This document shows positions 3,097-60,180 of a stretch of DNA of 64,000 bases, piece after piece. Location of the stretch: contig CAVOJR010000001.1 of the NCBI GenBank assembly GCA_963696295.1, forward strand, positions 3,120,095 to 3,184,094, given 5' to 3'. The notes beneath the pieces are model-generated. The model was not told the origin of the DNA and searched no databases. It saw nothing but the letters and a program-made list of their open reading frames with translations. The DNA is from an uncultured Chlamydiae bacterium. GTDB taxonomy: Bacteria > Chlamydiota > Chlamydiia > Chlamydiales > JAJFMB01. The position numbers were made by a program, and so were the translations under genes. The first letter of the stretch is position 1; each line of letters begins with the position of its first letter.

Positions 3097-4065
3097 ATGA
3101 GTTACAATGGTATAAATGGTGGTGAAGTTGTCAGATACTACAGCAACAACAACAATTCGAATAATAATAATGGCGATCAACAAGTCCAGGGAAATGGGGT
3201 GTCTTATACGCTATTGTCTGTGGAAGAAGAATCAAAAGTAAAAGAAAGACTTCAGGCTATCAGTAAATTGATAGAACTGGAACAAGATGAGGGCCAAAAA
3301 AGGGCATACCGTCTTCACTATAAAGCAGAAGTGGCTAAAGAACTTGAAAGCAATCTTGCAAAAGCCATTTTGAATGAACAAAGCGCAAAGGCTAAATTTG
3401 ATGATTTTTTAGATCGACATGCACAATTGGAGATAGAAAAACATAGACAGGAATTAGCTAATCAACAATTGCAAGAAAGAATTGATGGTGAAGCTAAAAA
3501 GAGAGCTGAAGTCGAAGATGAATTGAATGCCCTCACTCCCTTACTTTTTAAACTAAACAAAACGAACCAACAGGCAACAGCAGAATTGGATCAAACAAAG
3601 TCCTCTTTAGAAAGCGAAGGCCAAAAGAGAAAAGTTGCAGAAGCTGAATTGATTCAAACTCGGTCCTCTTTAGAAAAAAAAGTCAAAAAGATAAAAGTTG
3701 TAGAAGAAGAATTGACTCAAACAAGGTCCTTATTAGAAAATGAAGGCACATCGAGGCAAAACTTTGAAAATGAATTAAGAGCAGCAATATCCTCATTAGA
3801 TTCTCAGAAAATTGCGCGAAAAGTTGCTGAGGCAAAACTTGTCGAAGCAATTGCTCAGATCGAAGAAGATAAGAAAAGAATTGATACCCTCGAAAAGGAA
3901 AAAAAGAAAATCGTTTCTCAGCATGAAGAAACTCAAAGTCAATTGAAACAAACAAAAGCAGCTCTTTGTAAAAGTCAAAAAGCTCTTGAAGATGAAAGGG
4001 CAATGAGAGCTGAGCTTGAGCAAAAAATCCAGAAGTTTATCAATCAATTCCAATTTAAAAAGTGA
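3097..4065 (+). CDS. Coiled-coil protein with N-terminal Asn-rich tract (candidate secreted/effector-type protein)
   Basis: AGGAG RBS 7 nt upstream. NNNNSNNNNG run near the N-terminus. E/K/Q/L-rich heptad-like sequence throughout. Three 21-aa repeats L(D/I/T)QT(K/R)S(S/L)LE... at 3586-3648, 3649-3711 and 3712-3774. AT-rich relative to flanking core genes. Confidence 0.75.
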   Translation: MSYNGINGGEVVRYYSNNNNSNNNNGDQQVQGNGVSYTLLSVEEESKVKERLQAISKLIELEQDEGQKRAYRLHYKAEVAKELESNLAKAILNEQSAKAKFDDFLDRHAQLEIEKHRQELANQQLQERIDGEAKKRAEVEDELNALTPLLFKLNKTNQQATAELDQTKSSLESEGQKRKVAEAELIQTRSSLEKKVKKIKVVEEELTQTRSLLENEGTSRQNFENELRAAISSLDSQKIARKVAEAKLVEAIAQIEEDKKRIDTLEKEKKKIVSQHEETQSQLKQTKAALCKSQKALEDERAMRAELEQKIQKFINQFQFKK

Positions 4066-4165: not shown

Positions 4166-5635
4166 ATGAACGGAATAAACCCTTGGGAAAAGACAACAAA
4201 ACCTTTGCAGGTACCGGCAGGGTTTTATTCCTCCCTTCGGAAAATCAACACAACTAAAGTCGACAGAGCGACATCGCCGATTTTCGATGTCCAAGGAAAC
4301 CTCTTATGTGAAGGTATGAGCCAAAAAAAAGCAACTAAAGTCGACAGAGCGACGTCCCCGATTTTCGATGTCGAGGGAAATCTCTTATGCCACGACTTTA
4401 ACAGACTAACGACAAGCGGCTCTGTTATCGATTTCATTGACAAGACCAATTTCGATGCTTTTGAAGCGACTGACCTCTTCAAATTATGCAGTATGGCAAC
4501 AACAATTTTATTGGATGAGGCTCTTTCAAAAACATTAAAAAAACTGAAGTATGAGATATTGAAAAAGATCGATCAATTCTCTCTGCCGGAAATCAGCCAA
4601 ATGACTCTGGATTTGAGTAAAATTAACCTCCTGGATAAGGGGCTTATGTACGCGATTTCAAATCAGGTAGTGGCAAAGCAAGCCGGCTTGAACAGGGAAC
4701 AATTTTTCCAAATCATCTCAACATTCGAAAAATTAAAATTTGCTAACATCGAATTTTTCATCATGATGGCAAAATTTGCCGTTGAACAGATACCCGACTG
4801 TTCCGGAGAAGAACTTACCAAAATCGCCTCCGCTTATGCCTTTGTTTTAGCTGAAGTTCAGAACAGCCAAAATGCCGGAGTGCTGAAAAACCATGCCCGC
4901 GCTATTTGGCTTGAAATACAAAAAAAAGGTCTTGAACTTTCCCTCCCTCCTTCAGCCGTACAATTATTCGAAGATACTTTAAATGTTAATCCGATAAAAA
5001 ATCAATTAATGACCACTGATGAGCTGGGCTTAATTTTCCTTCTCTGCAGAGAAAATATTTTAGACACGGATCTGCTCGTTACCACGCTGCAACGGTTGGC
5101 AATATTAAACAAACCGGTGGCTGTATATGATAGGGAAATATTTAATAGATTGGTAATGAATGGGATGGATTTGATTCAGCAAAGCGGATTGTATGCGGAT
5201 CATCTTTGCGGCCTCGCTTATGCGCTTGTACGACTGGATAAATATGATGAAGATATGTTATCTCGGGTTGAAAGCCGCGCTCTGGCATTGGTTTCAACTT
5301 TCAACGCCAGACATTTTGGCGACATCACTTCTGCTTTGTGCCAATCAAGATTTCCCAAGCGCAAATTTTTCAATACGGTTGCCCCTTTTATTCTGAAACA
5401 GCTCCGTACGGCAACTGATACCGATTTGGCCCAGATAGCCATCGCCTATGAGGTGTTCCAACAAAATTCTTCGGTTTCTTTTGCGATTCTCGTTGAGATA
5501 GACAGGAGATGGGAGGAATTTAAGCAAGACAGAGATTTCATCAATATGGCTATAGAAAGCGCCGCCGCAAACCTCAAGGGTTTGAATAAAGAGGAACAAG
5601 CGATTGCTGCAGGAATTTTGCAATCCTTTGCCTAG
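4166..5635 (+). CDS. Alpha-helical repeat protein, FAST-kinase/OPR/heptatricopeptide-like pattern; N-terminal 27-aa duplication
   Basis: Long ORF. Direct 81-bp duplication (4251-4331 / 4332-~4395) encodes TKVDRATSPIFDV(Q/E)GNLLC twice. The downstream part has repeated ~36-38-aa units of the type f..eel..ia.Aya.l.....d..l, for example LTKIASAYAFVL, LCGLAYALVRLDKYDEDML and LAQIAIAYEVF. Confidence 0.7.
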   Translation: MNGINPWEKTTKPLQVPAGFYSSLRKINTTKVDRATSPIFDVQGNLLCEGMSQKKATKVDRATSPIFDVEGNLLCHDFNRLTTSGSVIDFIDKTNFDAFEATDLFKLCSMATTILLDEALSKTLKKLKYEILKKIDQFSLPEISQMTLDLSKINLLDKGLMYAISNQVVAKQAGLNREQFFQIISTFEKLKFANIEFFIMMAKFAVEQIPDCSGEELTKIASAYAFVLAEVQNSQNAGVLKNHARAIWLEIQKKGLELSLPPSAVQLFEDTLNVNPIKNQLMTTDELGLIFLLCRENILDTDLLVTTLQRLAILNKPVAVYDREIFNRLVMNGMDLIQQSGLYADHLCGLAYALVRLDKYDEDMLSRVESRALALVSTFNARHFGDITSALCQSRFPKRKFFNTVAPFILKQLRTATDTDLAQIAIAYEVFQQNSSVSFAILVEIDRRWEEFKQDRDFINMAIESAAANLKGLNKEEQAIAAGILQSFA

Positions 5636-34033: not shown

Positions 34034-36514
34034 ATGGACAGACGCAGCTTAATTTTTGTTATCGCTCTTTCTTTAACCCTTTTAGGTGTAAACACTTTTT
34101 TCCAATGGTTAAACCGCGGAGAAGTGGAAAAATGGCAGGAGCAGCAAAAAGCCTCCCTTGTCCTCGAAGAAAAGGAGCTTGCCGCCCAAGTCTCCGAGCA
34201 TACCGCGAAGCCGCAAGACCTGCCGCTTGTCGATCTGTTCGCCGACGAAGCGGGCCAAAATTATATCGGCCGGGGCGTCAAAGCCGGCGATACCGTGCTC
34301 ACCCTTTCCTGGGCCTCGGAACTGCCTAAAACTTTATTCAGCCGACCCTCGAACACCGAAAAAGCGTTGGAAAAAGTTGAAATTGCCTTTGCTCCGGAAA
34401 AACTGAAAGAACTCGCTGTTTACCGCTCCAAGCCCGAAGCGAAAATTCCCCTGGGATCCCTCCCCGCCAGCGGCCACTACGAACTTCAGCTGATAGAATT
34501 GCCTAAAGGCGAAATTGCTCTTGGGGAATATACTGATGGAGAATTATCAATACCCGCTGAACAGCTGCAGAAAATACGCGTCAGACTGGGGGAAGCAAAA
34601 GACATGGGCAAAGTCGGCAACGCCGTTGTCCTTTTCAAATCCACTCCTGTCGCAGTCTATGCGAGCGACACGAATTCTTTAGTCATGATCGAACATATCT
34701 TCAATCTCGGCTCACTCATTTCCGCTCCCGAAGCCAAAAAGGGTTTGAAAGCCGGAGAACGCTCTTCTGAAAAATTCTATGTGCTCGAAAATGACTACCA
34801 GCAGCTGGTCTTTTCCAATTACGGCGGTGCGCTGGCTGAGATCAATTTGCCCTTTAAAAACGAAAGCAACGACCGCAGCGTCGTCAGAGAGATCCAATTT
34901 GACCGCGACATGGTTAAAAACCACTCCTATAACGCCTACTTTCCGCAACACCCCTTTTACATTGCGGGCGTCGATAAGGAGCAGCCAAAAGGAAAACTTG
35001 GCGGCTATTACCCCTTGATCCGGCGCGATCTGATCGAATCTTCGAGCGGAAAATCCGTCAGAGTGGTCCCCTACTTTTACGCCCTTAACTTTATCTCGGA
35101 ATACCCTGAAGTTTCGGAGATTGTTTTTGATGTGCAATCTTTTACGAAAGATAAAATTGTCTTTGTCGCCAATCAGACTCACCGCCGCATCACAAAAACC
35201 TACTCGATTGCCGGACAGGAGAATGGAGCTCCCTATTGCATCGATTTGACTATTCAGATCGAGGGGGATTCGCGCGGTCTGTGGCTCTCAAGCGGCGTGC
35301 CTGAAGTGGAAATGATCTCCGGCTCCCCGGCGCCTGCGTTGAAATACCGGATTTTGAAAAACAACAACAAATCTGAAGTGAATGAAATTTCTCTTCCGAA
35401 AGACACAGCCACCGTTACCACGGTCAATCCCGATTGGATCAATACGGCAAACGGCTTTTTCGGCCTGATTGTCGATCCGCTGACAAAAATCGAACCGGGG
35501 TACCGCGTCCAGTATGTATCCGGCACTGTCGTCCCTTCAAGACTCGTTGAAATCGACCCTGAGTACAACCTTTTCAAGGCTCAAAATTTGCCCGGCTATA
35601 TGGCTATGCTGCCGATAAAATCGCGCAATGGAAGCTTGACTTTCCGCGTCTTTGCCGGTCCCTTCGCTGACAATATCTTAAAAACCGTCGACAGAACCTT
35701 TACCGATCCGGCCACCGGAGCCAGCCCCCAATATGTTGATGTGCAAAGCTTTCATGGCTGGTTTGCCTTTATATCCGAACCGTTTGCGAAGTTCCTGTAC
35801 ATCGTGATGAACTTCTTCCACAGCCTCACCAACTCGTGGGGTATTTCGATCATCCTCCTTACGGTTTTCCTCCGCCTGATGCTCTACCCGTTGAACGCCT
35901 GGTCCGCCCGCTCAATGGTAAAAATGCAGGAAATAGCCCCCAAAGTGCAGGCTATCCAGGAAAAGTATAAAAACGATCCGCGCAAATCACAACTCGAAAT
36001 CATGAATCTCTACCGGGAATCGGGAGCGAACCCCTTCTCCGGCTGCTTTCCGATCCTGATACAAATTCCGTTTCTGATCGGGATGTTCGGTTTGCTGAAA
36101 ACCACGTTTTCTTTACGAGGAGCCAGCTTTATTCCCGGATGGATCAATGATCTCTCCGCCCCCGATGTGCTCTTCTCATGGGACAAACCGATTCCATTTT
36201 TCGGAACCTCTTTCCATCTGCTTCCCTTTATTTTAGGCCTGGTTATGTTCATACAGCCGCGATTGACTTCAAACGCGCCCAAAGATCCGAATCAGATGAC
36301 CGAGCAGCAAAGGCAGGCCCGCGCCATGGGGAACATCATGTCTGTCGTCTTTACGGCGATGTTTTATAATTTCCCCTCCGGCCTTAACATCTATTGGCTC
36401 TTCTCCATGCTCCTCGGCATGCTGCAGCAGTGGTGGACGCAAAAGCAAATGGAAGCGAGAAAGGGAGCTGTTGTCATCGAAGCGAAACCGGCCAAGGCAA
36501 AAGCAAAAAAATAA
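34034..36514 (+). CDS. yidC: Membrane protein insertase YidC (long periplasmic domain form)
   Basis: N-terminal TM, large periplasmic domain, then WGISIILLTVFLRLMLYPLN, MQEIAPKVQAIQEKYKNDP and NPFSGCFPILIQIPFLIGMF. Confidence 0.93.
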   Translation: MDRRSLIFVIALSLTLLGVNTFFQWLNRGEVEKWQEQQKASLVLEEKELAAQVSEHTAKPQDLPLVDLFADEAGQNYIGRGVKAGDTVLTLSWASELPKTLFSRPSNTEKALEKVEIAFAPEKLKELAVYRSKPEAKIPLGSLPASGHYELQLIELPKGEIALGEYTDGELSIPAEQLQKIRVRLGEAKDMGKVGNAVVLFKSTPVAVYASDTNSLVMIEHIFNLGSLISAPEAKKGLKAGERSSEKFYVLENDYQQLVFSNYGGALAEINLPFKNESNDRSVVREIQFDRDMVKNHSYNAYFPQHPFYIAGVDKEQPKGKLGGYYPLIRRDLIESSSGKSVRVVPYFYALNFISEYPEVSEIVFDVQSFTKDKIVFVANQTHRRITKTYSIAGQENGAPYCIDLTIQIEGDSRGLWLSSGVPEVEMISGSPAPALKYRILKNNNKSEVNEISLPKDTATVTTVNPDWINTANGFFGLIVDPLTKIEPGYRVQYVSGTVVPSRLVEIDPEYNLFKAQNLPGYMAMLPIKSRNGSLTFRVFAGPFADNILKTVDRTFTDPATGASPQYVDVQSFHGWFAFISEPFAKFLYIVMNFFHSLTNSWGISIILLTVFLRLMLYPLNAWSARSMVKMQEIAPKVQAIQEKYKNDPRKSQLEIMNLYRESGANPFSGCFPILIQIPFLIGMFGLLKTTFSLRGASFIPGWINDLSAPDVLFSWDKPIPFFGTSFHLLPFILGLVMFIQPRLTSNAPKDPNQMTEQQRQARAMGNIMSVVFTAMFYNFPSGLNIYWLFSMLLGMLQQWWTQKQMEARKGAVVIEAKPAKAKAKK

Positions 36515-36540
36515 GGCCAAAAATAAGGCCAAAAATAACA
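36507..36540 (+). repeat. 12-bp tandem repeat (AAAAATAAGGCC x2.8) that includes the yidC stop codon
   Basis: Units at 36507-36518 (contains the TAA stop at 36512-36514), 36519-36530 and a partial one at 36531-36540. Confidence 0.8.
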
Positions 36541-39413: not shown

Positions 39414-39488
39414 CGGAGTATAGCGCAGTTTGGCTAGCGCGGCTGCTTTGGGAGCAGTAGGTCGGGGGTTCAAATCCCTCTACTCCGA
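39414..39488 (+). tRNA. tRNA-Pro (anticodon UGG)
   Basis: Hand-folded cloverleaf: acceptor CGGAGTA/TACTCCG, D arm GCGC-AGTTTGGCTA-GCGC, anticodon arm GCTGC-TTTGGGA-GCAGT (anticodon TGG), variable AGGTC, T arm GGGGG-TTCAAAT-CCCTC, discriminator A. CCA is not encoded. Closely resembles E. coli tRNA-Pro. Confidence 0.9.
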
Positions 39489-39539: not shown

Positions 39540-40649
39540 ATGGCGCAAGTATTAAGTTATCTATACTGGGATCCTGTAAGAGAGATGTTTTACATCCCTC
39601 TGATCGAAAGGCCTGTCATGTGGTATGGCTTTTTCTTCGTTTTAGGCCTCATGATCGGTTATTACATTATGATCCGGGTTTTTGAGCGCAAACTGGCCCA
39701 AACCCCCCAGCTTCTGATGCGCGACGTGGGCAACTGGAACGTTTTGATGCGGCAGCTGAGGCGCGCTTTGCAGGAAGATATCGGAAAACTCAGCGAACTG
39801 GTAAAAACTTTCCCAAAAGAACTGACCATCAAACTGAAAAATCAGTCCAATACGGAAACGATCAAATTAAAAGTTTTAGATGAACTCAATCAATACGGCA
39901 TTGAGAGGAAAGAGTGGGAGAAACTTTTTCCCAAGGCTTTCTTTACCCTGAAGGAATTAAGCGTCAGTTTGGCTGACAAGCTGCTTTGGTTCCTCATTGC
40001 CGGCATCCTGATCGGCGCGCGGCTTGGGCATGTCTTTTTTTATGAGTGGCCAAGATTTTCCTCCCACCCCATCGATATCCTGAAAGTGTGGGAAGGAGGG
40101 CTTGCCAGCCATGGAGGAACGATCGGCATCCTGATTGCCGTTTTTGCCTATCTTAAGGTGATAGGCCGCCAATTTCCGGAACTTAAGTTCATTGTGATGC
40201 TCGATGCGCTCTCTGTGCCTACAGGTCTTGCCGCTTACTTTATCCGGATCGGCAACTTTGTGAATCAGGAGATCATCGGCGTTCCCACATCTCTGCCTTG
40301 GGCCATCATCTTTGGGCATCCTGCCGACGGCAGTCCTTCCGTCCCAAGGCACCCAACCCAACTTTACGAGGCAATGGCCTATCTCGGGATCTTTATTTTC
40401 CTCTACACCTTATGGAAGCGAAAAGCCGAGCAGCTTCGCCCGGGGGTGATCAGCGGTCTGTTTTTCATTTTGACATTTGGCTCCCGCTTTTTCTTTGAAT
40501 TTACCAAAAAGCCTTTGAGCTCCATGATCGACGAACATTTCCTGCAAACAGGGCAATACTTGAGTATTCCTTTTATCATGCTCGGAATATTCCTGCTCTT
40601 TAATAATGCGGAGCCGGCCAAAGAGACTGTCCAATATCCCCAGGTCTAG
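39540..40649 (+). CDS. lgt: Prolipoprotein diacylglyceryl transferase (with ~90-aa insertion after TM1)
   Basis: WYGFFFVLGLMIGY, GARLGHVFFYEW, VWEGGLASHGGTIG, RIGNFVNQEIIG, RHPTQLYEA. Confidence 0.9.
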   Translation: MAQVLSYLYWDPVREMFYIPLIERPVMWYGFFFVLGLMIGYYIMIRVFERKLAQTPQLLMRDVGNWNVLMRQLRRALQEDIGKLSELVKTFPKELTIKLKNQSNTETIKLKVLDELNQYGIERKEWEKLFPKAFFTLKELSVSLADKLLWFLIAGILIGARLGHVFFYEWPRFSSHPIDILKVWEGGLASHGGTIGILIAVFAYLKVIGRQFPELKFIVMLDALSVPTGLAAYFIRIGNFVNQEIIGVPTSLPWAIIFGHPADGSPSVPRHPTQLYEAMAYLGIFIFLYTLWKRKAEQLRPGVISGLFFILTFGSRFFFEFTKKPLSSMIDEHFLQTGQYLSIPFIMLGIFLLFNNAEPAKETVQYPQV

Positions 40650-41024
40650 GCCTCCAAAGCCACCAGTCTAGTCACCCCTCGGCCGCAGAAGCAGAAGTAT
40701 TCCTAAAGCCACAACCAGGCCCCAATAAGTGAGCCAATATCAGTATAGTCTCGCCTCGGCCGCAGGAGCAGAAGTATTCCTAAAGCCACCCGATAAGTGA
40801 GCCAATATCAGTCTAGTCACCGCTCGGCCGCAGGAGCAGAAGTTTTCCTAAAGCCGCCCGATAAGTGAGCCAATATCAGTCTTGTCTCGCCTCGGCCGCA
40901 GGAGCAGAAGTTTTCCTAAAGCCGCCCAATAAGTGAGCCAATATCGGTCTAGTCTCGCCTCGGCCGCAGAAGCAGAAGTATTCCTAAAGCCACCACCAGG
41001 CCGCCCGGGTAAGTGAGCCAATAT
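40650..41024 (-). repeat. Tandem array of 5 copies (77, 68, 68, 68, 80 bp) of the resB 3' terminus including its stop codon
   Basis: Units start at 40664, 40741, 40809, 40877 and 40945, with a partial unit at 40650-40663. The last unit is the genuine gene end (...YWLTYPGGLVVALGILLLLRPRRD*). Upstream units encode YWLTY(R/R/G)VALG(I/K)LLLLRP(R/S)(R/G)D followed by TAG, TAT, TAG or AAG. Confidence 0.9.
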
Positions 41025-42871
41025 TTTGCAGGGTCCCTATTCACCACCAGCTGAATGCGCTGTATTGAGGTCTCCTCATGGGGATAAATGTGCGACAGAT
41101 AAAACCGGTAGCCATCCCAAGTCTCATGCACCTCGTTCATGCTCACCGTCTTTTCCACTTCCGTCTGATTTTTCAAGTCGGTAATCAACAAATCGCTCTC
41201 ATAGCTATAAGCCTGATCCATTTGCGGATAGTTGATTTGCCGCGCATCCCTCAACCTTATTTTAAAGGGAATGCGCCTCATCTCAGGGCGGAAACTCATA
41301 AGGAAACCCCCTCGCGGCCAGCTGAGGCCCTGCCCGTAGGGATCATAAAGCAAAGTCTGATAAAGCCCCTCTTTTGTTTTTACCACGATCATGGGCCGGT
41401 TATCTTCCAATTTTTTTAGGGGCTCCAGGGGTTCATGCCGCACGGTCAGCGGACACTCAAAACTCATCCGCTCTTCAAAGGAAATCCCCAATTGCCCTGG
41501 GTCAACGCCATATACCCTGAGATAAACCGAGAGCATCTGCTCTGATGAGGACTCTTGAGGGGGGGCGGGAAGCTCCTCGGCGACCATAAATACCTGCTGC
41601 AAAAGAGCGGTAATTAGTTCTTCTGGGTCTTTGATGTGTTCCACGAGGGAGGCGAGCGGCCAGTTTTTCAGATAGGCGGCCAGATCCTGCCCTCTCTTCA
41701 TCCCCTCCTCCAGCTCATTCAGCAAATAAGCCCCCCACTGAGCCCCTTTTCTTTCCCGCTCGCTCACCTGGCTCCAGTCCTGGTTTAAATACAATTTCAG
41801 CGGAGGAGGCAGGCTTTCCGCTTGTTCGAGGATTTTTTTTTCGCGGGTGGACCGGTCATAAGGAAAAGGGAATTTTGCCGCCGCGCTATAGCCGCTAAAA
41901 CCTTTGTCATAGGCGATATAGTGATCCAATTTGTCCCCAGGGAAAACCTTGGAAAAAAAGTGTCCGTAGGCGTCAAAGGCGTAAAAATGGGTATCTCCCT
42001 TCAGGTCTTTGACAAAGAGCAGTTTCGGAGTAGTCGATAAATCTGCGGCGAGCTCCTTATAGGGGAGGTTCAATAAGGCTTGATCGCCGGTCAGAGGAAT
42101 GGTTATGCCCAAATGATGCAGCGCTGGCCCCTCCCAATCAATCGCTCCATCAAATGGCCCTTCAAAGACAATTTTTTTGCTCTTCCGGTCGCTCAGACGG
42201 AGGAGAAGCCCCTCCAGGTAGACTTTCTTCGCCACTTCCATCGGATCGGCGGCATGATAGGCGTAAAGATCCCAATGATCGGCAAGGTCGCCTGGAATTT
42301 TCATCCGGGAGGAGACTTGCGCCTTTCCCTCATAGGGGTAGACCGGAAAGGGCTGAATGCCATCGAGAAAAGCAAAATTCCCTTTGATCCAGGTTTCATA
42401 GCTTTCCTTGCCGTGGGGATAAAAATGAACGATTTCCAATCCCTCCTCAACCTGGTCCAGGGGATATTGCCGCTGGCTGCCATTTTGATTTTGCACATGG
42501 AGCCGCTCCGTGCCGGGGATGATCAGCGTATCCGAGGAGGTTCCCTCCAGCAAGCCCATCTGCCCTTGCGTCCCTTTGATATTTTTGATCATGACTCCCC
42601 CGATGATCATCAACAGACCTAAATGGGTGATCAAAAAGGGGATATGTTTGCTCTTAAAGGGCCATCTTCTTAGGGCGGACACCAGGATGTTCACAAAAAA
42701 AAGGGAGAGCAAAAAGAGAAAAACGGGATTGCTGTAAGCAAGGGAGGCGGCGTAAAGATGGGAGCCGGTAAAGCTTTCGGCCAAAGTGCCGGCGATGACG
42801 ATCAGGGCCGAAGAGGCGATCAAACCGACAGCCAAATAAACACTGCCTAAAAAATAAACGATTTTCTTCAC
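40949..42871 (-). CDS. resB: Cytochrome c biogenesis protein ResB/CcsB (system II)
   Basis: N-terminal TM and SNPVFLFLLSLFFVNILVSALRRWPF...HLGLLMIIGG. Large periplasmic domain. C-terminal MNEVHETWDGYRFYLS...VNRDPAKYWLTYPGG..ALG TM segment, typical of ResB. Confidence 0.8.
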   Translation of the reverse strand: MKKIVYFLGSVYLAVGLIASSALIVIAGTLAESFTGSHLYAASLAYSNPVFLFLLSLFFVNILVSALRRWPFKSKHIPFLITHLGLLMIIGGVMIKNIKGTQGQMGLLEGTSSDTLIIPGTERLHVQNQNGSQRQYPLDQVEEGLEIVHFYPHGKESYETWIKGNFAFLDGIQPFPVYPYEGKAQVSSRMKIPGDLADHWDLYAYHAADPMEVAKKVYLEGLLLRLSDRKSKKIVFEGPFDGAIDWEGPALHHLGITIPLTGDQALLNLPYKELAADLSTTPKLLFVKDLKGDTHFYAFDAYGHFFSKVFPGDKLDHYIAYDKGFSGYSAAAKFPFPYDRSTREKKILEQAESLPPPLKLYLNQDWSQVSERERKGAQWGAYLLNELEEGMKRGQDLAAYLKNWPLASLVEHIKDPEELITALLQQVFMVAEELPAPPQESSSEQMLSVYLRVYGVDPGQLGISFEERMSFECPLTVRHEPLEPLKKLEDNRPMIVVKTKEGLYQTLLYDPYGQGLSWPRGGFLMSFRPEMRRIPFKIRLRDARQINYPQMDQAYSYESDLLITDLKNQTEVEKTVSMNEVHETWDGYRFYLSHIYPHEETSIQRIQLVVNRDPAKYWLTYPGGLVVALGILLLLRPRRD

Positions 42872-50341: not shown

Positions 50342-50960
50342 ATGATTTCCAAGTTTCTTGACCCGCAAAAATGATGTTGCATTCAGAAAAATTTTTGGTT
50401 CAGAAAAGAATAAAGATATTCTTATTCATTTCCTCAATGACATGGTTACTTTTAAAGAGAATGGCCCCATCACGCAAGTGCCTTTTTCGAAAAACAATCC
50501 AAGACACTGAGACCGCTGCCCACAAGACCAGCATCGTGGATATCTTATGCAAAGACGATAAAAATAACACTTATATCGTTGAAATGCAAGTGGCTAAAGA
50601 AAAAGGATTTGAGAAAAGAGCCCAATATTACGCCTCGAAAGCCTACATTTCCCAGGCACATGTCGGCGGGGAGTTCCATCATCTTAAAGAAGTGATTTTT
50701 TTGGCGATTGCAGACTTTGTCATGTTCCCCCAAAAAAAAGATTATAAATCAGATCATGTTATCTTAGATAAAAAAAGCCTCGAGAACGACCTGAAAGATT
50801 TTTCCTTTACATTTCTGGAGCTTCCTAAATTCCATAAAGAGGTTGATCAACTGCCAATATGACCGAAAAATGGGCCTATTTTTTTAAACACGCTGAAGAA
50901 ATGTCGGAACAAGATCTTCTAAAACGCACCAGCTCTATCAGGTTTGACAGAGTGGCTTAG
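50342..50960 (+). pseudogene. Rpn-family PD-(D/E)XK nuclease / putative transposase, frameshifted remnant
   Basis: Family-typical peptides are spread over three frames: MISKFLDP (frame of 50342), KNDVAFRKIFGSEKNKDILIHFLND (frame of 50367, ends in TGA), KTSIVDILCKDDKNNTYIVEMQVAKEKGFEKRAQYY...VIFLAIADF (listed ORF 50371-50862), and TEKWAYFFKHAEE (50859-50960). Confidence 0.75.
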
Positions 50961-56879: not shown

Positions 56880-57416
56880 TTACTTCTTTTTCGAAGGGAG
56901 TTTGAATTCTTTCCCGTCCGCCACAAAAACCCCATTGCCCCAATGGTGGATGGTGCGGGGCCGTTTTTTCGAGGGAGTGATCCAGGCCTTGACAACCTCA
57001 AGGATAAAGATGTTGTACTTCTCGGTCATCTTCATATCGGTCACCCGGCATTCCAGATTGGCAAAGCACTCCTTGATAAGCGGGGCTTGCACCAGCTCCG
57101 CCGGCTCTTGAGTGAGCTGGAACTTCTTGAACTTGTCGACCCGTTTGCCGGAGATGTTGCCCACGCCGACGACCTGCTCAGCCAGATCCTCTGTCGGGAT
57201 GTTGATCACGCACTCTTTGGTCTCTTTCAAGATCTCGAAGGTGTAATTGCGGTTGCTGATCACGCAAGCGACCATAGGCGGCTCAAAATCGATCATCATA
57301 TGCCAGGACATCGTCATGACATTGGCTTTTTCCTTGCGCGCCGTCGAGACCATGACCACCGGGCCCGGCTCGAGCAACTGGTAGACTTTTGAGAGCGGCA
57401 ATGCTTTTTTGACCAT
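56880..57416 (-). CDS. Flavin reductase-like FMN-binding protein
   Basis: LLEPGPVVMVSTA...NVMTMSWHM...P.VACVIS..NYTFE.I. is typical of the flavin_reduct split-barrel family. Confidence 0.8.
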   Translation of the reverse strand: MVKKALPLSKVYQLLEPGPVVMVSTARKEKANVMTMSWHMMIDFEPPMVACVISNRNYTFEILKETKECVINIPTEDLAEQVVGVGNISGKRVDKFKKFQLTQEPAELVQAPLIKECFANLECRVTDMKMTEKYNIFILEVVKAWITPSKKRPRTIHHWGNGVFVADGKEFKLPSKKK

Positions 57417-57515
57417 GAGTTACTCCAATCTGCTTCAAAGTCACCGGCGGCGGATCCTATCAGCCCAATAACGGACATGTTCAAGGGAATAACATGAGTT
57501 TTTTAGCTTGTCAAA

Positions 57516-57931
57516 CTATACAACCAATCTGGTAAATAGAACCTTCACGCGAGCCTGAAGGTTGTACGACTTGTCGAGCTCAAGCTATACAACCACTCTG
57601 GTAAATAGCACCTTCAAGCGAGCCTGAAGGTTGTACGACTTGTCGAGCTCAAGCTATACAACCAATCTGGTAAATAGAACCTTCACGCGAGCCTGAAGGT
57701 TGTACGACTTGTCGAGCTCAAGCTATACAACCACTCTGGTAAATAGAACCTTCAAGCGAGCCTGAAGGTTGTACGACTTGTCGAGCTCAAGCTATACAAC
57801 CACTCTGGTAAATAGCACCTTCAAGCGAGCCTGAAGGGCGGGATGTACTTGTCGAGCTCAAGCTATACAACCACTCTGGTAAATAGCACCTTCACGCGAG
57901 CCTGAAGGGCGGGGTTGTACGTGTCGAGCTT
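57516..57931 (-). repeat. Tandem array of 6 copies (69, 69, 69, 69, 71, 69 bp) of the 3' terminus plus TAG stop of the 131-aa ORF
   Basis: CTATACAACC recurs at 57516, 57585, 57654, 57723, 57792 and 57863. The last unit is the genuine gene end (YKLDTYNPALQARVKVLFTRVVV*). Each unit contains the hairpin ACCTTCA-N8-TGAAGGT. Confidence 0.92.
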
Positions 57932-58258
57932 GTATTTTGTATTTGCCAGGTCCCGGCCGGAATAGAGAATGTCCAAGGCTGCGTCCCTGCGAGGCGGCGA
58001 GTTAAATTGGCAATCCACAACGTTTCCCCTATAGGTATAGAAACGGTTTGCTCCATTTTTACCAACCTGTTGGATGGTACAATAAAAAGCGTTGCTTTGC
58101 CCGCCCCTGGCATAAGCTGCCTCAAATAGTTTAAAAAGAGTTGTCGGCTCTACGACATCGGTAAGCGGGGCGGTGGATCTGGGCGAGCCCGCCATTAAGT
58201 TTGACTGTACTGTGATATAATAGTCGTTTTCTGCAGTGCGGATGGTAGGTATAGACAT
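57863..58258 (-). CDS. Hypothetical 131-aa protein
   Basis: ORF divergent from the first CPAF-like gene. No motif recognised. Its 3' end is the founder unit of the downstream array. Confidence 0.6.
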   Translation of the reverse strand: MSIPTIRTAENDYYITVQSNLMAGSPRSTAPLTDVVEPTTLFKLFEAAYARGGQSNAFYCTIQQVGKNGANRFYTYRGNVVDCQFNSPPRRDAALDILYSGRDLANTKYKLDTYNPALQARVKVLFTRVVV

Positions 58259-58416
58259 AAAAGGCTCCTTTAGTGTTTCGTTTGCTGAAATATATTAACA
58301 CGCGGCCTGAAAAAAGGGTAGGAAATTCTTTGTTTTGAAAGTTTATGTCATTCTCTTTTGAATTGCTAAAAATAACTCATTTATTTTACAATTATTAAAA
58401 TTAATGAGAGGTATTT

Positions 58417-60180
58417 ATGAAAAATTTTCTATTTGCTTTTATTGCAGTGCTATTTTTTAGCGCGGCCTGGGCTGATGATTCTACCGTAAAAGCGATGATC
58501 CACGATCTGGAAGTCGCCAAATACCAATATGAGACCAAATACGCGCCAAAGGCGTGGAAAAAAGAGCGCTATGGCTGGAGCCTGGAGGAAAGCTTTTTGA
58601 CCGCTAAAAGAAGGATCGAAACAGAAAGACCTCAAACGATCAAAGAATATCAAAAAATCTTTAGAGATTTCATCTTCTCAACAAATGATTATCACGTTAA
58701 CGTTCGTTTCTATTCCACCGGCATCAGCTGGTTTCCCATGAAGATCAGAGGATTCCAGAACCGCTATTATATTGCCAATGATTTGAGTCCGACCCCGCAG
58801 AAAGTCCGCCTCTTTAACACTGAGGAGATCGATTGGGAAGCCTATGACGAAACCCTGGAAAAATTAATCCCCGGCAGTGAAATCCTCGCCATCGACGGAA
58901 AGCCTGTCGCCCAGGCGATTGAAGAGATCATCGACGATAAATTGGGCGGGGATCGCACTCCTACAGGATTTTCTCTCGCAGAACTTATGATTTTCACCCG
59001 CGCAGAATCGGAGGCTGAAACATTCACGATTACCGTAAAAAATGATGATGAAGTCGAAGTATTGACTCTCCCATGGGTGAGAGTGCCGGAATGGATCAAA
59101 GAGCAGCCTCTTAAAGCGGCTGATCCTGAATTCCTGGAGGCCAGCTTCAATTTGACTAAGGGAAAAAAGAATCCAAAAAAGGCTATGGAAGCCATCGGTA
59201 AACTCCTTCGCAAGGACTATAGCATCAAAAATGTGCAGCCTTTGCTGTTCCAAAAGTTTGACGCTGAGGAAACTCAAAAAGACCGGCGCGAAAAAGGGTT
59301 TTTACCTGAGCTTGGCGACCTGTTATGGGAAACAGATAAAGACCAGGAGCTCTACGCCTATCTCTATAAAAATAAAAAAGGCCGCAAAATCGGGTACATT
59401 TACCTTGAGAGCTTCGATCCTTTCGACGCCGAAGCCATGGTAGAAGAGCTGATCGAAGCCATCGCTTTTTTGGAAAAGGAGTCTGATGCGCTGGTTTTTG
59501 ACATCTCGAATAATCCGGGCGGCGATCCCTTTTATCTCTATGCGGTTTTATCCACTCTGACCGATAAGCCCCTGGCTTGCCCCACCCAAAGAGAAACCTT
59601 AATCCAGGAAGATTTGTATGACTATATCCTCTTGCAACAGCTTGTTGAATGGCTGGTGAAATGGGGCGCTGAAGAAGAAGAAGGGGTTTCGCCGAATTTA
59701 TCCGGCTTTGTCATCGACGAGACTGTGATTCAAGAGATCCAGCAATACACCCGGTCTCTTTTAAAGAATTGGGAATCGGGCAAAAGATTATCCGAGCCTC
59801 TTTACTTATATGGAATTCCTGAAATCAGACCCCACCCTAAAGCCCATTACACCAAACCCATTCTTGTTTTGATCAACGAGCTCGATTTTTCCTGCGCCGA
59901 TATTTTTCCTGCCATCTTGCAGGACAATCAAAGAGCCGTGCTTTTTGGCAAAAAAACAGCCGGAGCCGGCGGTTATGTGAGACCCTACCAGCACACCAGC
60001 CGGTTTGGCATCGCCTCCTACTCTATCACCGGTTCCATTTTAACCAGAACCAATGGAGAGGTCCTTGAAAACTTGGGCGTATCGCCTGATATTCCTTATG
60101 AAATATCACTAAGGGATATTCAGGAAAATTATGCCGATTATATTCAAAAAGTGAATAAAGAAATCAACAAATTAATATAG
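58417..60180 (+). CDS. CPAF-like S41 serine protease, paralog 1
   Basis: Signal peptide MKNFLFAFIAVLFFSAAWA. Matches my recollection of C. trachomatis CPAF: KYAPKAWKKERYGW (CPAF VKYAPKTWKEQYLGW), NDYHVNV (His), DISNNPGGDPFYLYAVLSTLTDKPL, KPILVLINELDFSCADIFP (Ser), KKTAGAGGYV, LENLGVSPD (Glu). Confidence 0.88.
   Translation: MKNFLFAFIAVLFFSAAWADDSTVKAMIHDLEVAKYQYETKYAPKAWKKERYGWSLEESFLTAKRRIETERPQTIKEYQKIFRDFIFSTNDYHVNVRFYSTGISWFPMKIRGFQNRYYIANDLSPTPQKVRLFNTEEIDWEAYDETLEKLIPGSEILAIDGKPVAQAIEEIIDDKLGGDRTPTGFSLAELMIFTRAESEAETFTITVKNDDEVEVLTLPWVRVPEWIKEQPLKAADPEFLEASFNLTKGKKNPKKAMEAIGKLLRKDYSIKNVQPLLFQKFDAEETQKDRREKGFLPELGDLLWETDKDQELYAYLYKNKKGRKIGYIYLESFDPFDAEAMVEELIEAIAFLEKESDALVFDISNNPGGDPFYLYAVLSTLTDKPLACPTQRETLIQEDLYDYILLQQLVEWLVKWGAEEEEGVSPNLSGFVIDETVIQEIQQYTRSLLKNWESGKRLSEPLYLYGIPEIRPHPKAHYTKPILVLINELDFSCADIFPAILQDNQRAVLFGKKTAGAGGYVRPYQHTSRFGIASYSITGSILTRTNGEVLENLGVSPDIPYEISLRDIQENYADYIQKVNKEINKLI

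Follow-up and report, generated by a model that had tools for sequence, protein, structure and literature searches.

Directly behind the stop codon of a 131-aa ORF, the last codons of that ORF are repeated head to tail, each time with the stop codon. This layout raises the question of whether the copies serve the gene or arose by an ordinary mutational process that ran across a gene end. The question was addressed in the window, i.e. the whole 64-kb stretch of DNA analysed here, for which an earlier description made without database searches (the sequence-only reading) was available.

Structure of the array

The minus-strand ORF (57863-58258) ends in ...YKLDTYNPALQARVKVLFTRVVV-TAG, its last residues being FTRVVV. 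Without any spacer, one 71-bp copy and four 69-bp copies of the last ca. 22 codons plus TAG follow on the 3' side of this stop codon (57516-57862; Table 1). TRF recognised a single array at 57511-57908 (period, 69; 5.7 copies; matches, 94%; indels, 0%), and units were delimited by cutting the minus strand after every GTATAG. Both agree with the sequence-only reading, which had described the ORF end and five further copies abutting one another.

Table 1. Positions in the window of the array, its units and the related loci
Feature	Position	Strand	Basis or remark
Flavin reductase-like gene, downstream of the 131-aa gene, same strand	56880..57416	-	Pfam PF01613, E = 3.4e-31
131-aa orphan gene, 3' end = seed of the array	57863..58258	-	ORF; one ortholog
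Ancestral (expressed) copy, codons ~108-131 plus TAG	57863..57933	-	Starts with the 7-nt ACAAGCT (57933-57927)
U1, 71 bp	57792..57862	-	Gene-type CCCGCCC block kept; frameshifted relative to the gene copy
U2-U5, four 69-bp copies	57516..57791	-	Unit-by-unit split and alignment
U2	57791-57723	-	69 bp
U3	57722-57654	-	69 bp
U4	57653-57585	-	69 bp
U5	57584-57516	-	69 bp
Distal array edge	57505..57515	-	TTTG plus second ACAAGCT (57511-57505); TTGACA one base past the last TAG
resB 3'-end copies, between convergent resB (-) and lgt (+)	40650..41030	-	Three 68-bp units, one 77-bp unit, 22-bp remnant
Miniature case at yidC, AAAAATAAGGCC x 2.7, contains the yidC TAA stop	36507..36538	+	TRF: 12 bp x 2.7

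Translation of U2 to U5, which gave LELDKSYNLQAR(L/V)KVLFTR(V/L)VV and a stop codon, confirmed the four open frames of 69 bp described earlier; since three random substitutions keep such a frame open with P = 0.88, the open frames carry no information. The longest stop-free stretch in the array is 24 codons or less in any frame. The length of the gene-adjacent unit (71 bp) was also as reported, and readthrough past the genuine TAG would give LELDKYIPPFRLA and then meet TGA after 13 codons, again in line with the sequence-only reading. Alignment bore out that the copies vary at three sites, all of them G/T. The accompanying statement that no copy has acquired an internal stop or an indel held for the open frames of U2 to U5 but failed for indels: U1 is frameshifted, and U2 to U5 differ from the gene copy in a block with a net 3-nt deletion (derived KSYN-L block). 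At all three variable sites, the change in the non-coding copies (57516-57862) is from G to T on the coding strand of the gene, G being ancestral.

U3 and U5 are identical, and a single site separates U2 from U4; a repeat search returned 138-nt copies of 99% identity at an offset of 138. The identity of U3 and U5 and the similarity of U2 and U4 indicate that the last expansion was a two-unit (138-bp) step.

The true ends of the array lie at ca. 57931-57933 (codons 108-110) and at 57505-57511, 5-11 nt past the last TAG. Since the phase of a tandem array is arbitrary, the coincidence of the repeat boundary with the stop codon, on which the sequence-only reading had laid weight, is partly a choice of phase; what stands is that the array is not intragenic and that its unit carries the stop. 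The proximal edge (57930-57944) falls on a 7-bp repeat, AATACAA x 2, coding for ANTKYK. This repeat is also present in the ortholog described below and therefore predates the array.

A 30-nt core of the unit had six matches in the 64-kb window, all at this locus, against none in 100 shuffles, and a DNA-pattern scan of JGI metagenomes gave no match to the unit sequence. In Logan ERR11563597, an independent short-read de Bruijn assembly of the same organism, contigs coming from either side end within the array, and the sequence at their edges is identical: L002 stops 2 nt short of the gene end, and L005 starts within the last unit. The resB array likewise breaks contig L006. Since the contig edges carry the identical repeat sequence, the repeat is present in the reads, while copy number is not readable from contigs that break there. 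The locus is thus a known breakpoint of short-read assemblies.

The 131-aa gene and its ortholog

A Pfam search assigned the 131-aa protein to no family. Its sole ortholog from a protein search is P0002 (132 aa, 65% identity; Logan SRR31558115), and the protein cluster of the 131-aa product has one member. A profile search of 1.84 billion representatives gave no further ortholog and one weak repeat-motif match, and a scan of JGI metagenome proteins gave no match. The ortholog terminates at the same residue (…YTRVDL-TGA) after a conserved C-terminus (ARVKVL.TRV), and neither an array nor any tandem repeat was found on its 12-kb contig. Since the ortholog has the same end and no array, the array is lineage-specific and the end of the gene is native. 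The 131-aa ORF is a real gene.

Alignment showed that the gene copy and the ortholog have G at the three G/T sites, the T variants being confined to the downstream copies, and the TYN(P/Q)(A/S)L block is common to the gene copy and the ortholog. Judged from this alignment, the expressed copy is the ancestral one and bears no sign of sequence received from the array. The sequence-only reading had proposed a check of orthologous loci for exchange of variants with the array; with the one array-free ortholog as reference, none was visible.

Stop-codon reassignment or readthrough was considered as an explanation and rejected: TAG is the stop of 13 of the 59 crude ORFs, the ortholog has TGA at the corresponding position, and readthrough meets TGA soon after the genuine stop.

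Origin of the stop-spanning arrays

A 7-nt direct repeat, ACAAGCT, is located at 57933-57927 in the gene and at 57511-57505, 4 nt past the last TAG, and brackets a putative 75-bp founding unit. A match of at least 7 nt between such boundary windows occurs in ca. 2% of random placements (P ~ 0.02). The ACAAGCT pair predicts the junction TAGTTTGACAAGCTCGACACG, from which the observed one, TAGCTTGAGCTCGACAAG, departs by two substitutions and the loss of 3 nt. Since a two-copy array has one junction, the changes of this junction are inherited by all later ones.

We consider it quite probable that a tandem duplication seeded by microhomology and covering the stop codon gave rise to the array, that slippage then expanded it, and that it is neutral as regards the protein. 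The course of events would have been as described below. Replication slippage or template switching between the two ACAAGCT sites (in codons 108-110 and 4 nt past the TAG, respectively) would have produced a tandem duplication of ca. 75 bp. As the structure of the units suggests, the single junction would then have acquired the 3-nt loss and the two substitutions, and the array would have grown by slipped-strand mispairing or unequal sister-strand exchange. The product would be an old gene-proximal 71-bp unit followed by four young 69-bp units, with two units added together in the last expansion.

Since the stop codon lies inside the duplicated segment, translation ends in the first copy, and the protein is the same at any copy number. 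The downstream copies are likely non-coding and drifting, with a spacer or 3' UTR that is 347 nt longer before the next gene as their sole likely effect; the flavin reductase-like gene is now 446 nt from the stop codon of the ORF and would be ca. 99 nt from it without the array. The array is probably neutral. The copies are highly identical and spacer-free, the stop of a real ORF is covered and the native C-terminus lies in the first copy, as in a stop-spanning minisatellite. The best explanation of the locus is thus a locally born minisatellite (VNTR) that happens to include a stop codon, and not a functional device. Among the four candidates of the sequence-only reading, slippage duplication, which it had listed last, is the one favoured by the evidence.

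The same layout had been pointed out at resB and yidC, and both repeats were found to be real by TRF. At resB, TRF reported 68 bp x 4 at 40721-40994. Compared with its homolog in L003, resB has a native C-terminus (…LRPYRHV and stop). Among GTDB genome contigs, its nearest relatives are from Chlamydiae / Parachlamydiaceae MAGs (31-34% identity), so that a Chlamydiae-like organism is the probable source of the window. Two of the four downstream copies, R1 and R3, are without TAG (CAAGAC and CTATAC, respectively), and the 68-bp period puts the copies out of frame. The edge copies are 95% alike, and identity to the reference edge copy is 73-77% for the internal ones. This pattern of edge and internal copies is the signature of neutral concerted evolution rather than of maintained cassettes.

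At resB too, a 7-nt sequence, ATATTGG, occurs both at the proximal boundary (41024-41018) and at 40637-40631, inside the last codons of lgt (P ~ 0.035), and an extra 4-nt loss is needed to reconcile the junction with the microhomology prediction. The founding unit probably contained both the resB and the lgt stop, which would overlap in a CTAG palindrome. Given the junction mismatch at both loci, the short direct repeats are suggestive, but no proof, of a microhomology origin of the founding duplication. The 22-bp remnant (GCCTCCAAAGCCACCAGTCTAG), flanked by CTAG repeats, now lies after the lgt stop (40629-40671). The yidC repeat consists of a lysine-rich tail, AAA AAA TAA GGCC, and is a case of plain slippage in a low-complexity run. 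A motif or dispersed family shared among the arrays was also considered and rejected, their similarity being no greater than that of shuffles.

Tandem duplications mediated by microhomology (5-8 bp) have been described with lengths of 55, 68 and 92 bp; genes are depleted of them unless they are in frame (PMC8639346). The founders deduced here, 75 and ~84 bp, are comparable with the duplicated segments of S. pombe ssp1 (55-92 bp), and the identical bracketing sequence is 7 nt here and 5-8 nt there (PMC8639346). In contrast to that system, the event is deduced here from an old, expanded and mutated array, and the junction needs a 3-4-nt loss. A microhomology of 7 bp has been described in plant mitochondrial repeats as well (PMC7643612). 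The window thus offers two fairly clean examples of the probable microhomology-seeded birth of a minisatellite in an intracellular-type bacterium.

Stop codons would be expected among such events. On a crude gene map of the window (59 ORFs, 89% coding), the 64 kb contain seven clear TRF arrays, of which three span a stop codon and four are intragenic. The periods of all four intragenic arrays (63, 69, 24 and 12/36 bp) are divisible by 3, and a two-copy 81-bp duplication is also in frame. Random 69-bp segments fell within genes in 82% of cases and between genes in 7.5%, covered only a start in 4.2% and covered only a stop in 3.8-4.2%. Duplications of the same size within genes would be purged by selection unless they were in frame and in a tolerant region, and owing to this selection the visible arrays are either in-frame and intragenic or stop-spanning. 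After removal of out-of-frame intragenic events, a stop-spanning share of about a quarter to a third is expected. Three stop-spanning arrays out of seven, with the rest in frame, is the outcome expected if random tandem duplications pass through a selection filter. Both large non-genic arrays in the window span a stop, somewhat more than the ca. 25% expected for 69-bp units placed at random among the non-genic classes, a post hoc comparison with a tiny n, and the stop-spanning count is at most a mild excess in a tiny sample picked afterwards. The sequence-only reading had suspected a recurrent process: the layout does recur at three loci, but a special process is not supported. The locus serves mostly as a caution: although a repeat whose unit ends in a stop codon looks designed, it is just what random tandem duplication would be expected to leave behind where genes are densely packed.

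VNTRs that span stop codons have been described before, and the present locus is a further instance of them. Among 88 VNTRs of Yersinia pestis, 10 lie across a stop codon that is part of the unit and 6 lie across a start codon; the authors expected hardly any influence of the former on the ORF (PMC3689786). The present array shares with them (M76, M65 and M59; PMC3689786) the head-to-tail copies of local sequence, the stop within the unit, the indifference of the protein to copy number and the presence, alongside, of intragenic arrays with periods divisible by 3. It differs in its 69-bp unit, which is longer than most (7-21 bp in 84% of the Y. pestis units; PMC3689786), in that 22 codons of coding sequence are copied, and in being known from one genome. 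Together with resB and yidC, the locus provides candidate VNTR markers for strain typing of the organism.

Alternative readings and the surroundings of the gene

It seems unlikely that the array is a multi-hairpin 3' UTR or intercistronic element that terminates transcription, shields the upstream mRNA from 3' exonucleases or tunes the flavin reductase gene, in the manner of REP/BIME arrays or MIRUs inside operons. A stem-loop is present in every unit, with stems of about 6-10 bp over all copies; the 7-bp stem that the sequence-only reading had ascribed to every unit was found, at 7 bp or more, in U2 to U5, but the stem of the gene copy and of U1 is 6 bp. The gene copy and U1 are weakly terminator-like (stem plus TGCTATTT; three found against 1.2 ± 1.4 in shuffles), and there is no other terminator-like site between the gene and the next same-strand gene. 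However, the folding energy of the unit is no better than that of shuffles (z = -0.59; gene copy, z = -1.28), and the ortholog is without the hairpin, its core having -2.3 kcal/mol compared with -12.0 kcal/mol in the gene copy; these two results count against the 3' UTR proposed earlier. Besides, a proper U-tract is absent, the unit is not a dispersed family and no Rfam family was matched, the only match in an Rfam search of the window being a tRNA at 39414-39488. A strengthening of the hairpin in the amplified units was also considered and rejected (core of the gene copy, -12.0 kcal/mol; units, -10.9 to -13.3 kcal/mol; no trend at resB).

REP/BIME sequences are a dispersed palindromic family outside genes. 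The present array resembles them in its repeated stem-loops directly downstream of a gene, but its hairpin is part of the coding sequence, statistically unremarkable and locus-specific. MIRU-VNTRs of Mycobacterium tuberculosis are tandem units of 40-100 bp between same-strand genes; they have stop codons in register with the flanking ORFs and form a dispersed family at dozens of loci. Tandem units between same-strand genes and in-register stops are found here as well, but the units come from the gene end of each locus itself and share no sequence. The unit of the 57511-57908 array occurs in the 64 kb only at its own locus, and not at several loci as a dispersed family of the MIRU or REP/BIME type does.

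Three arrays of unrelated sequence (27934-28231, 40721-40994 and 57511-57908) have periods of 69, 68 and 69 bp, respectively. The two larger stop-spanning arrays also appear, from their reconstructed founders, to have been trimmed from 75 and ~84 bp to 69 and 68 bp. The slippage model leaves the 68-69-bp periods in three unrelated arrays unexplained; they could be a coincidence. They might instead reflect a lineage-specific, biased process that makes or amplifies units of ~68-69 bp, preferentially at the 3' ends of genes, for example if a protein footprint, or a conflict between replication and transcription at gene ends, set the pace of slippage. Such a process would fit the three periods within 64 kb, the seeming trimming of both stop-spanning arrays and the three stop-spanning arrays among the seven. 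We nevertheless regard it as very unlikely: the comparison is post hoc with n = 3, one of the two arrays with a 69-bp period is a protein repeat of the ordinary in-frame kind, periods of 63 and 81 bp also occur in the window, and the association with stop codons is accounted for by the selection filter. If true, it would mean that a physical ruler, such as a protein footprint or an intermediate of replication or of transcription termination, sets the period of a bacterial minisatellite, and the clustering at 68-69 bp is the sole feature that might point to something new. The duplications with the 63-bp and 81-bp periods lie at 3579-3748 and 4242-4389.

We consider it highly improbable that the copies are silent C-terminal cassettes, by which recombination or gene conversion would alter the tail (V122L, V129L, TYNPA to KSYN) in a low-level phase or antigenic variation. 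U2 to U5 are in frame with the gene copy save for a net 3-nt difference, so that loss of units would produce a variant protein that is intact, and such contractions are mechanistically expected in any tandem array. Against this, the variation is trivial (two conservative V/L sites; similarity between copies, 94-100%), the expressed copy has kept the ancestral state throughout the variable sites and the TYNPA block with no visible exchange, and the C-terminus is conserved with the ortholog instead of diversifying. Moreover, U1 is frameshifted, the open frames are expected by chance, and at resB the copies are out of frame and their stops are decaying. The cassette proposal of the sequence-only reading thus found no support. 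Silent-cassette systems (pilE/pilS, vlsE and the C-terminal cassettes of polymorphic toxins; PMC3482391) likewise have promoterless partial 3' copies downstream, but the cassettes of pilE/pilS-type systems are diverse and separated, while the copies here are near-identical, contiguous and 22 codons long, with no exchange seen.

Next to no credence can be given to the remaining proposal, footprints of repeated site-specific recombination at an att-like site overlapping the gene end: integrative elements often bring a copy of the 3' end of a gene and leave the target gene intact, but the copies here abut with no DNA inserted between them, no core sequence is common to the three loci, and the genes examined on both flanks include no integrase or recombinase. 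The nearest mobile-element-like ORF, 6.6 kb away, is a 163-aa ORF at 50371-50862 (+) that matches positions 41-161 of the 229-position PDDEXK_2 profile (E = 1.7e-25; Rpn/YhgA-like 'transposase' family) and is, judging from this partial match, probably a truncated copy. Members of this family promote RecA-independent recombination.

The surroundings of the gene are otherwise of a housekeeping kind (flavin reductase-like, HemN-like, two S41 peptidases, a cytochrome c assembly protein, DNA polymerase III delta and others). The S41 (tail-specific / CPAF-like) peptidase genes are tandem paralogs at 58417-60180 and 60188-61999 (+), with 71-77% DNA identity in several stretches. An effect of a replication origin was examined, and along the window the GC skew did not switch clearly. 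Residues 79-116 of the 131-aa protein are weakly similar (E about 1e-4) to a ~38-aa motif that occurs in ~9 repeats in the 5025-aa protein P0003 and that we take to resemble the end of a filamin/Ig-like repeat; this similarity is a hint, and the only clue, to the fold of the orphan protein. The region upstream of the gene (58259-58330, minus strand) is strikingly conserved in the contig of the ortholog (L001, 5830-5891; aatttcctaccctt.tttca..ccgcgtg.ta.tat). This conservation stands out against a protein identity of only 65%, and the region may be a promoter or an operator.
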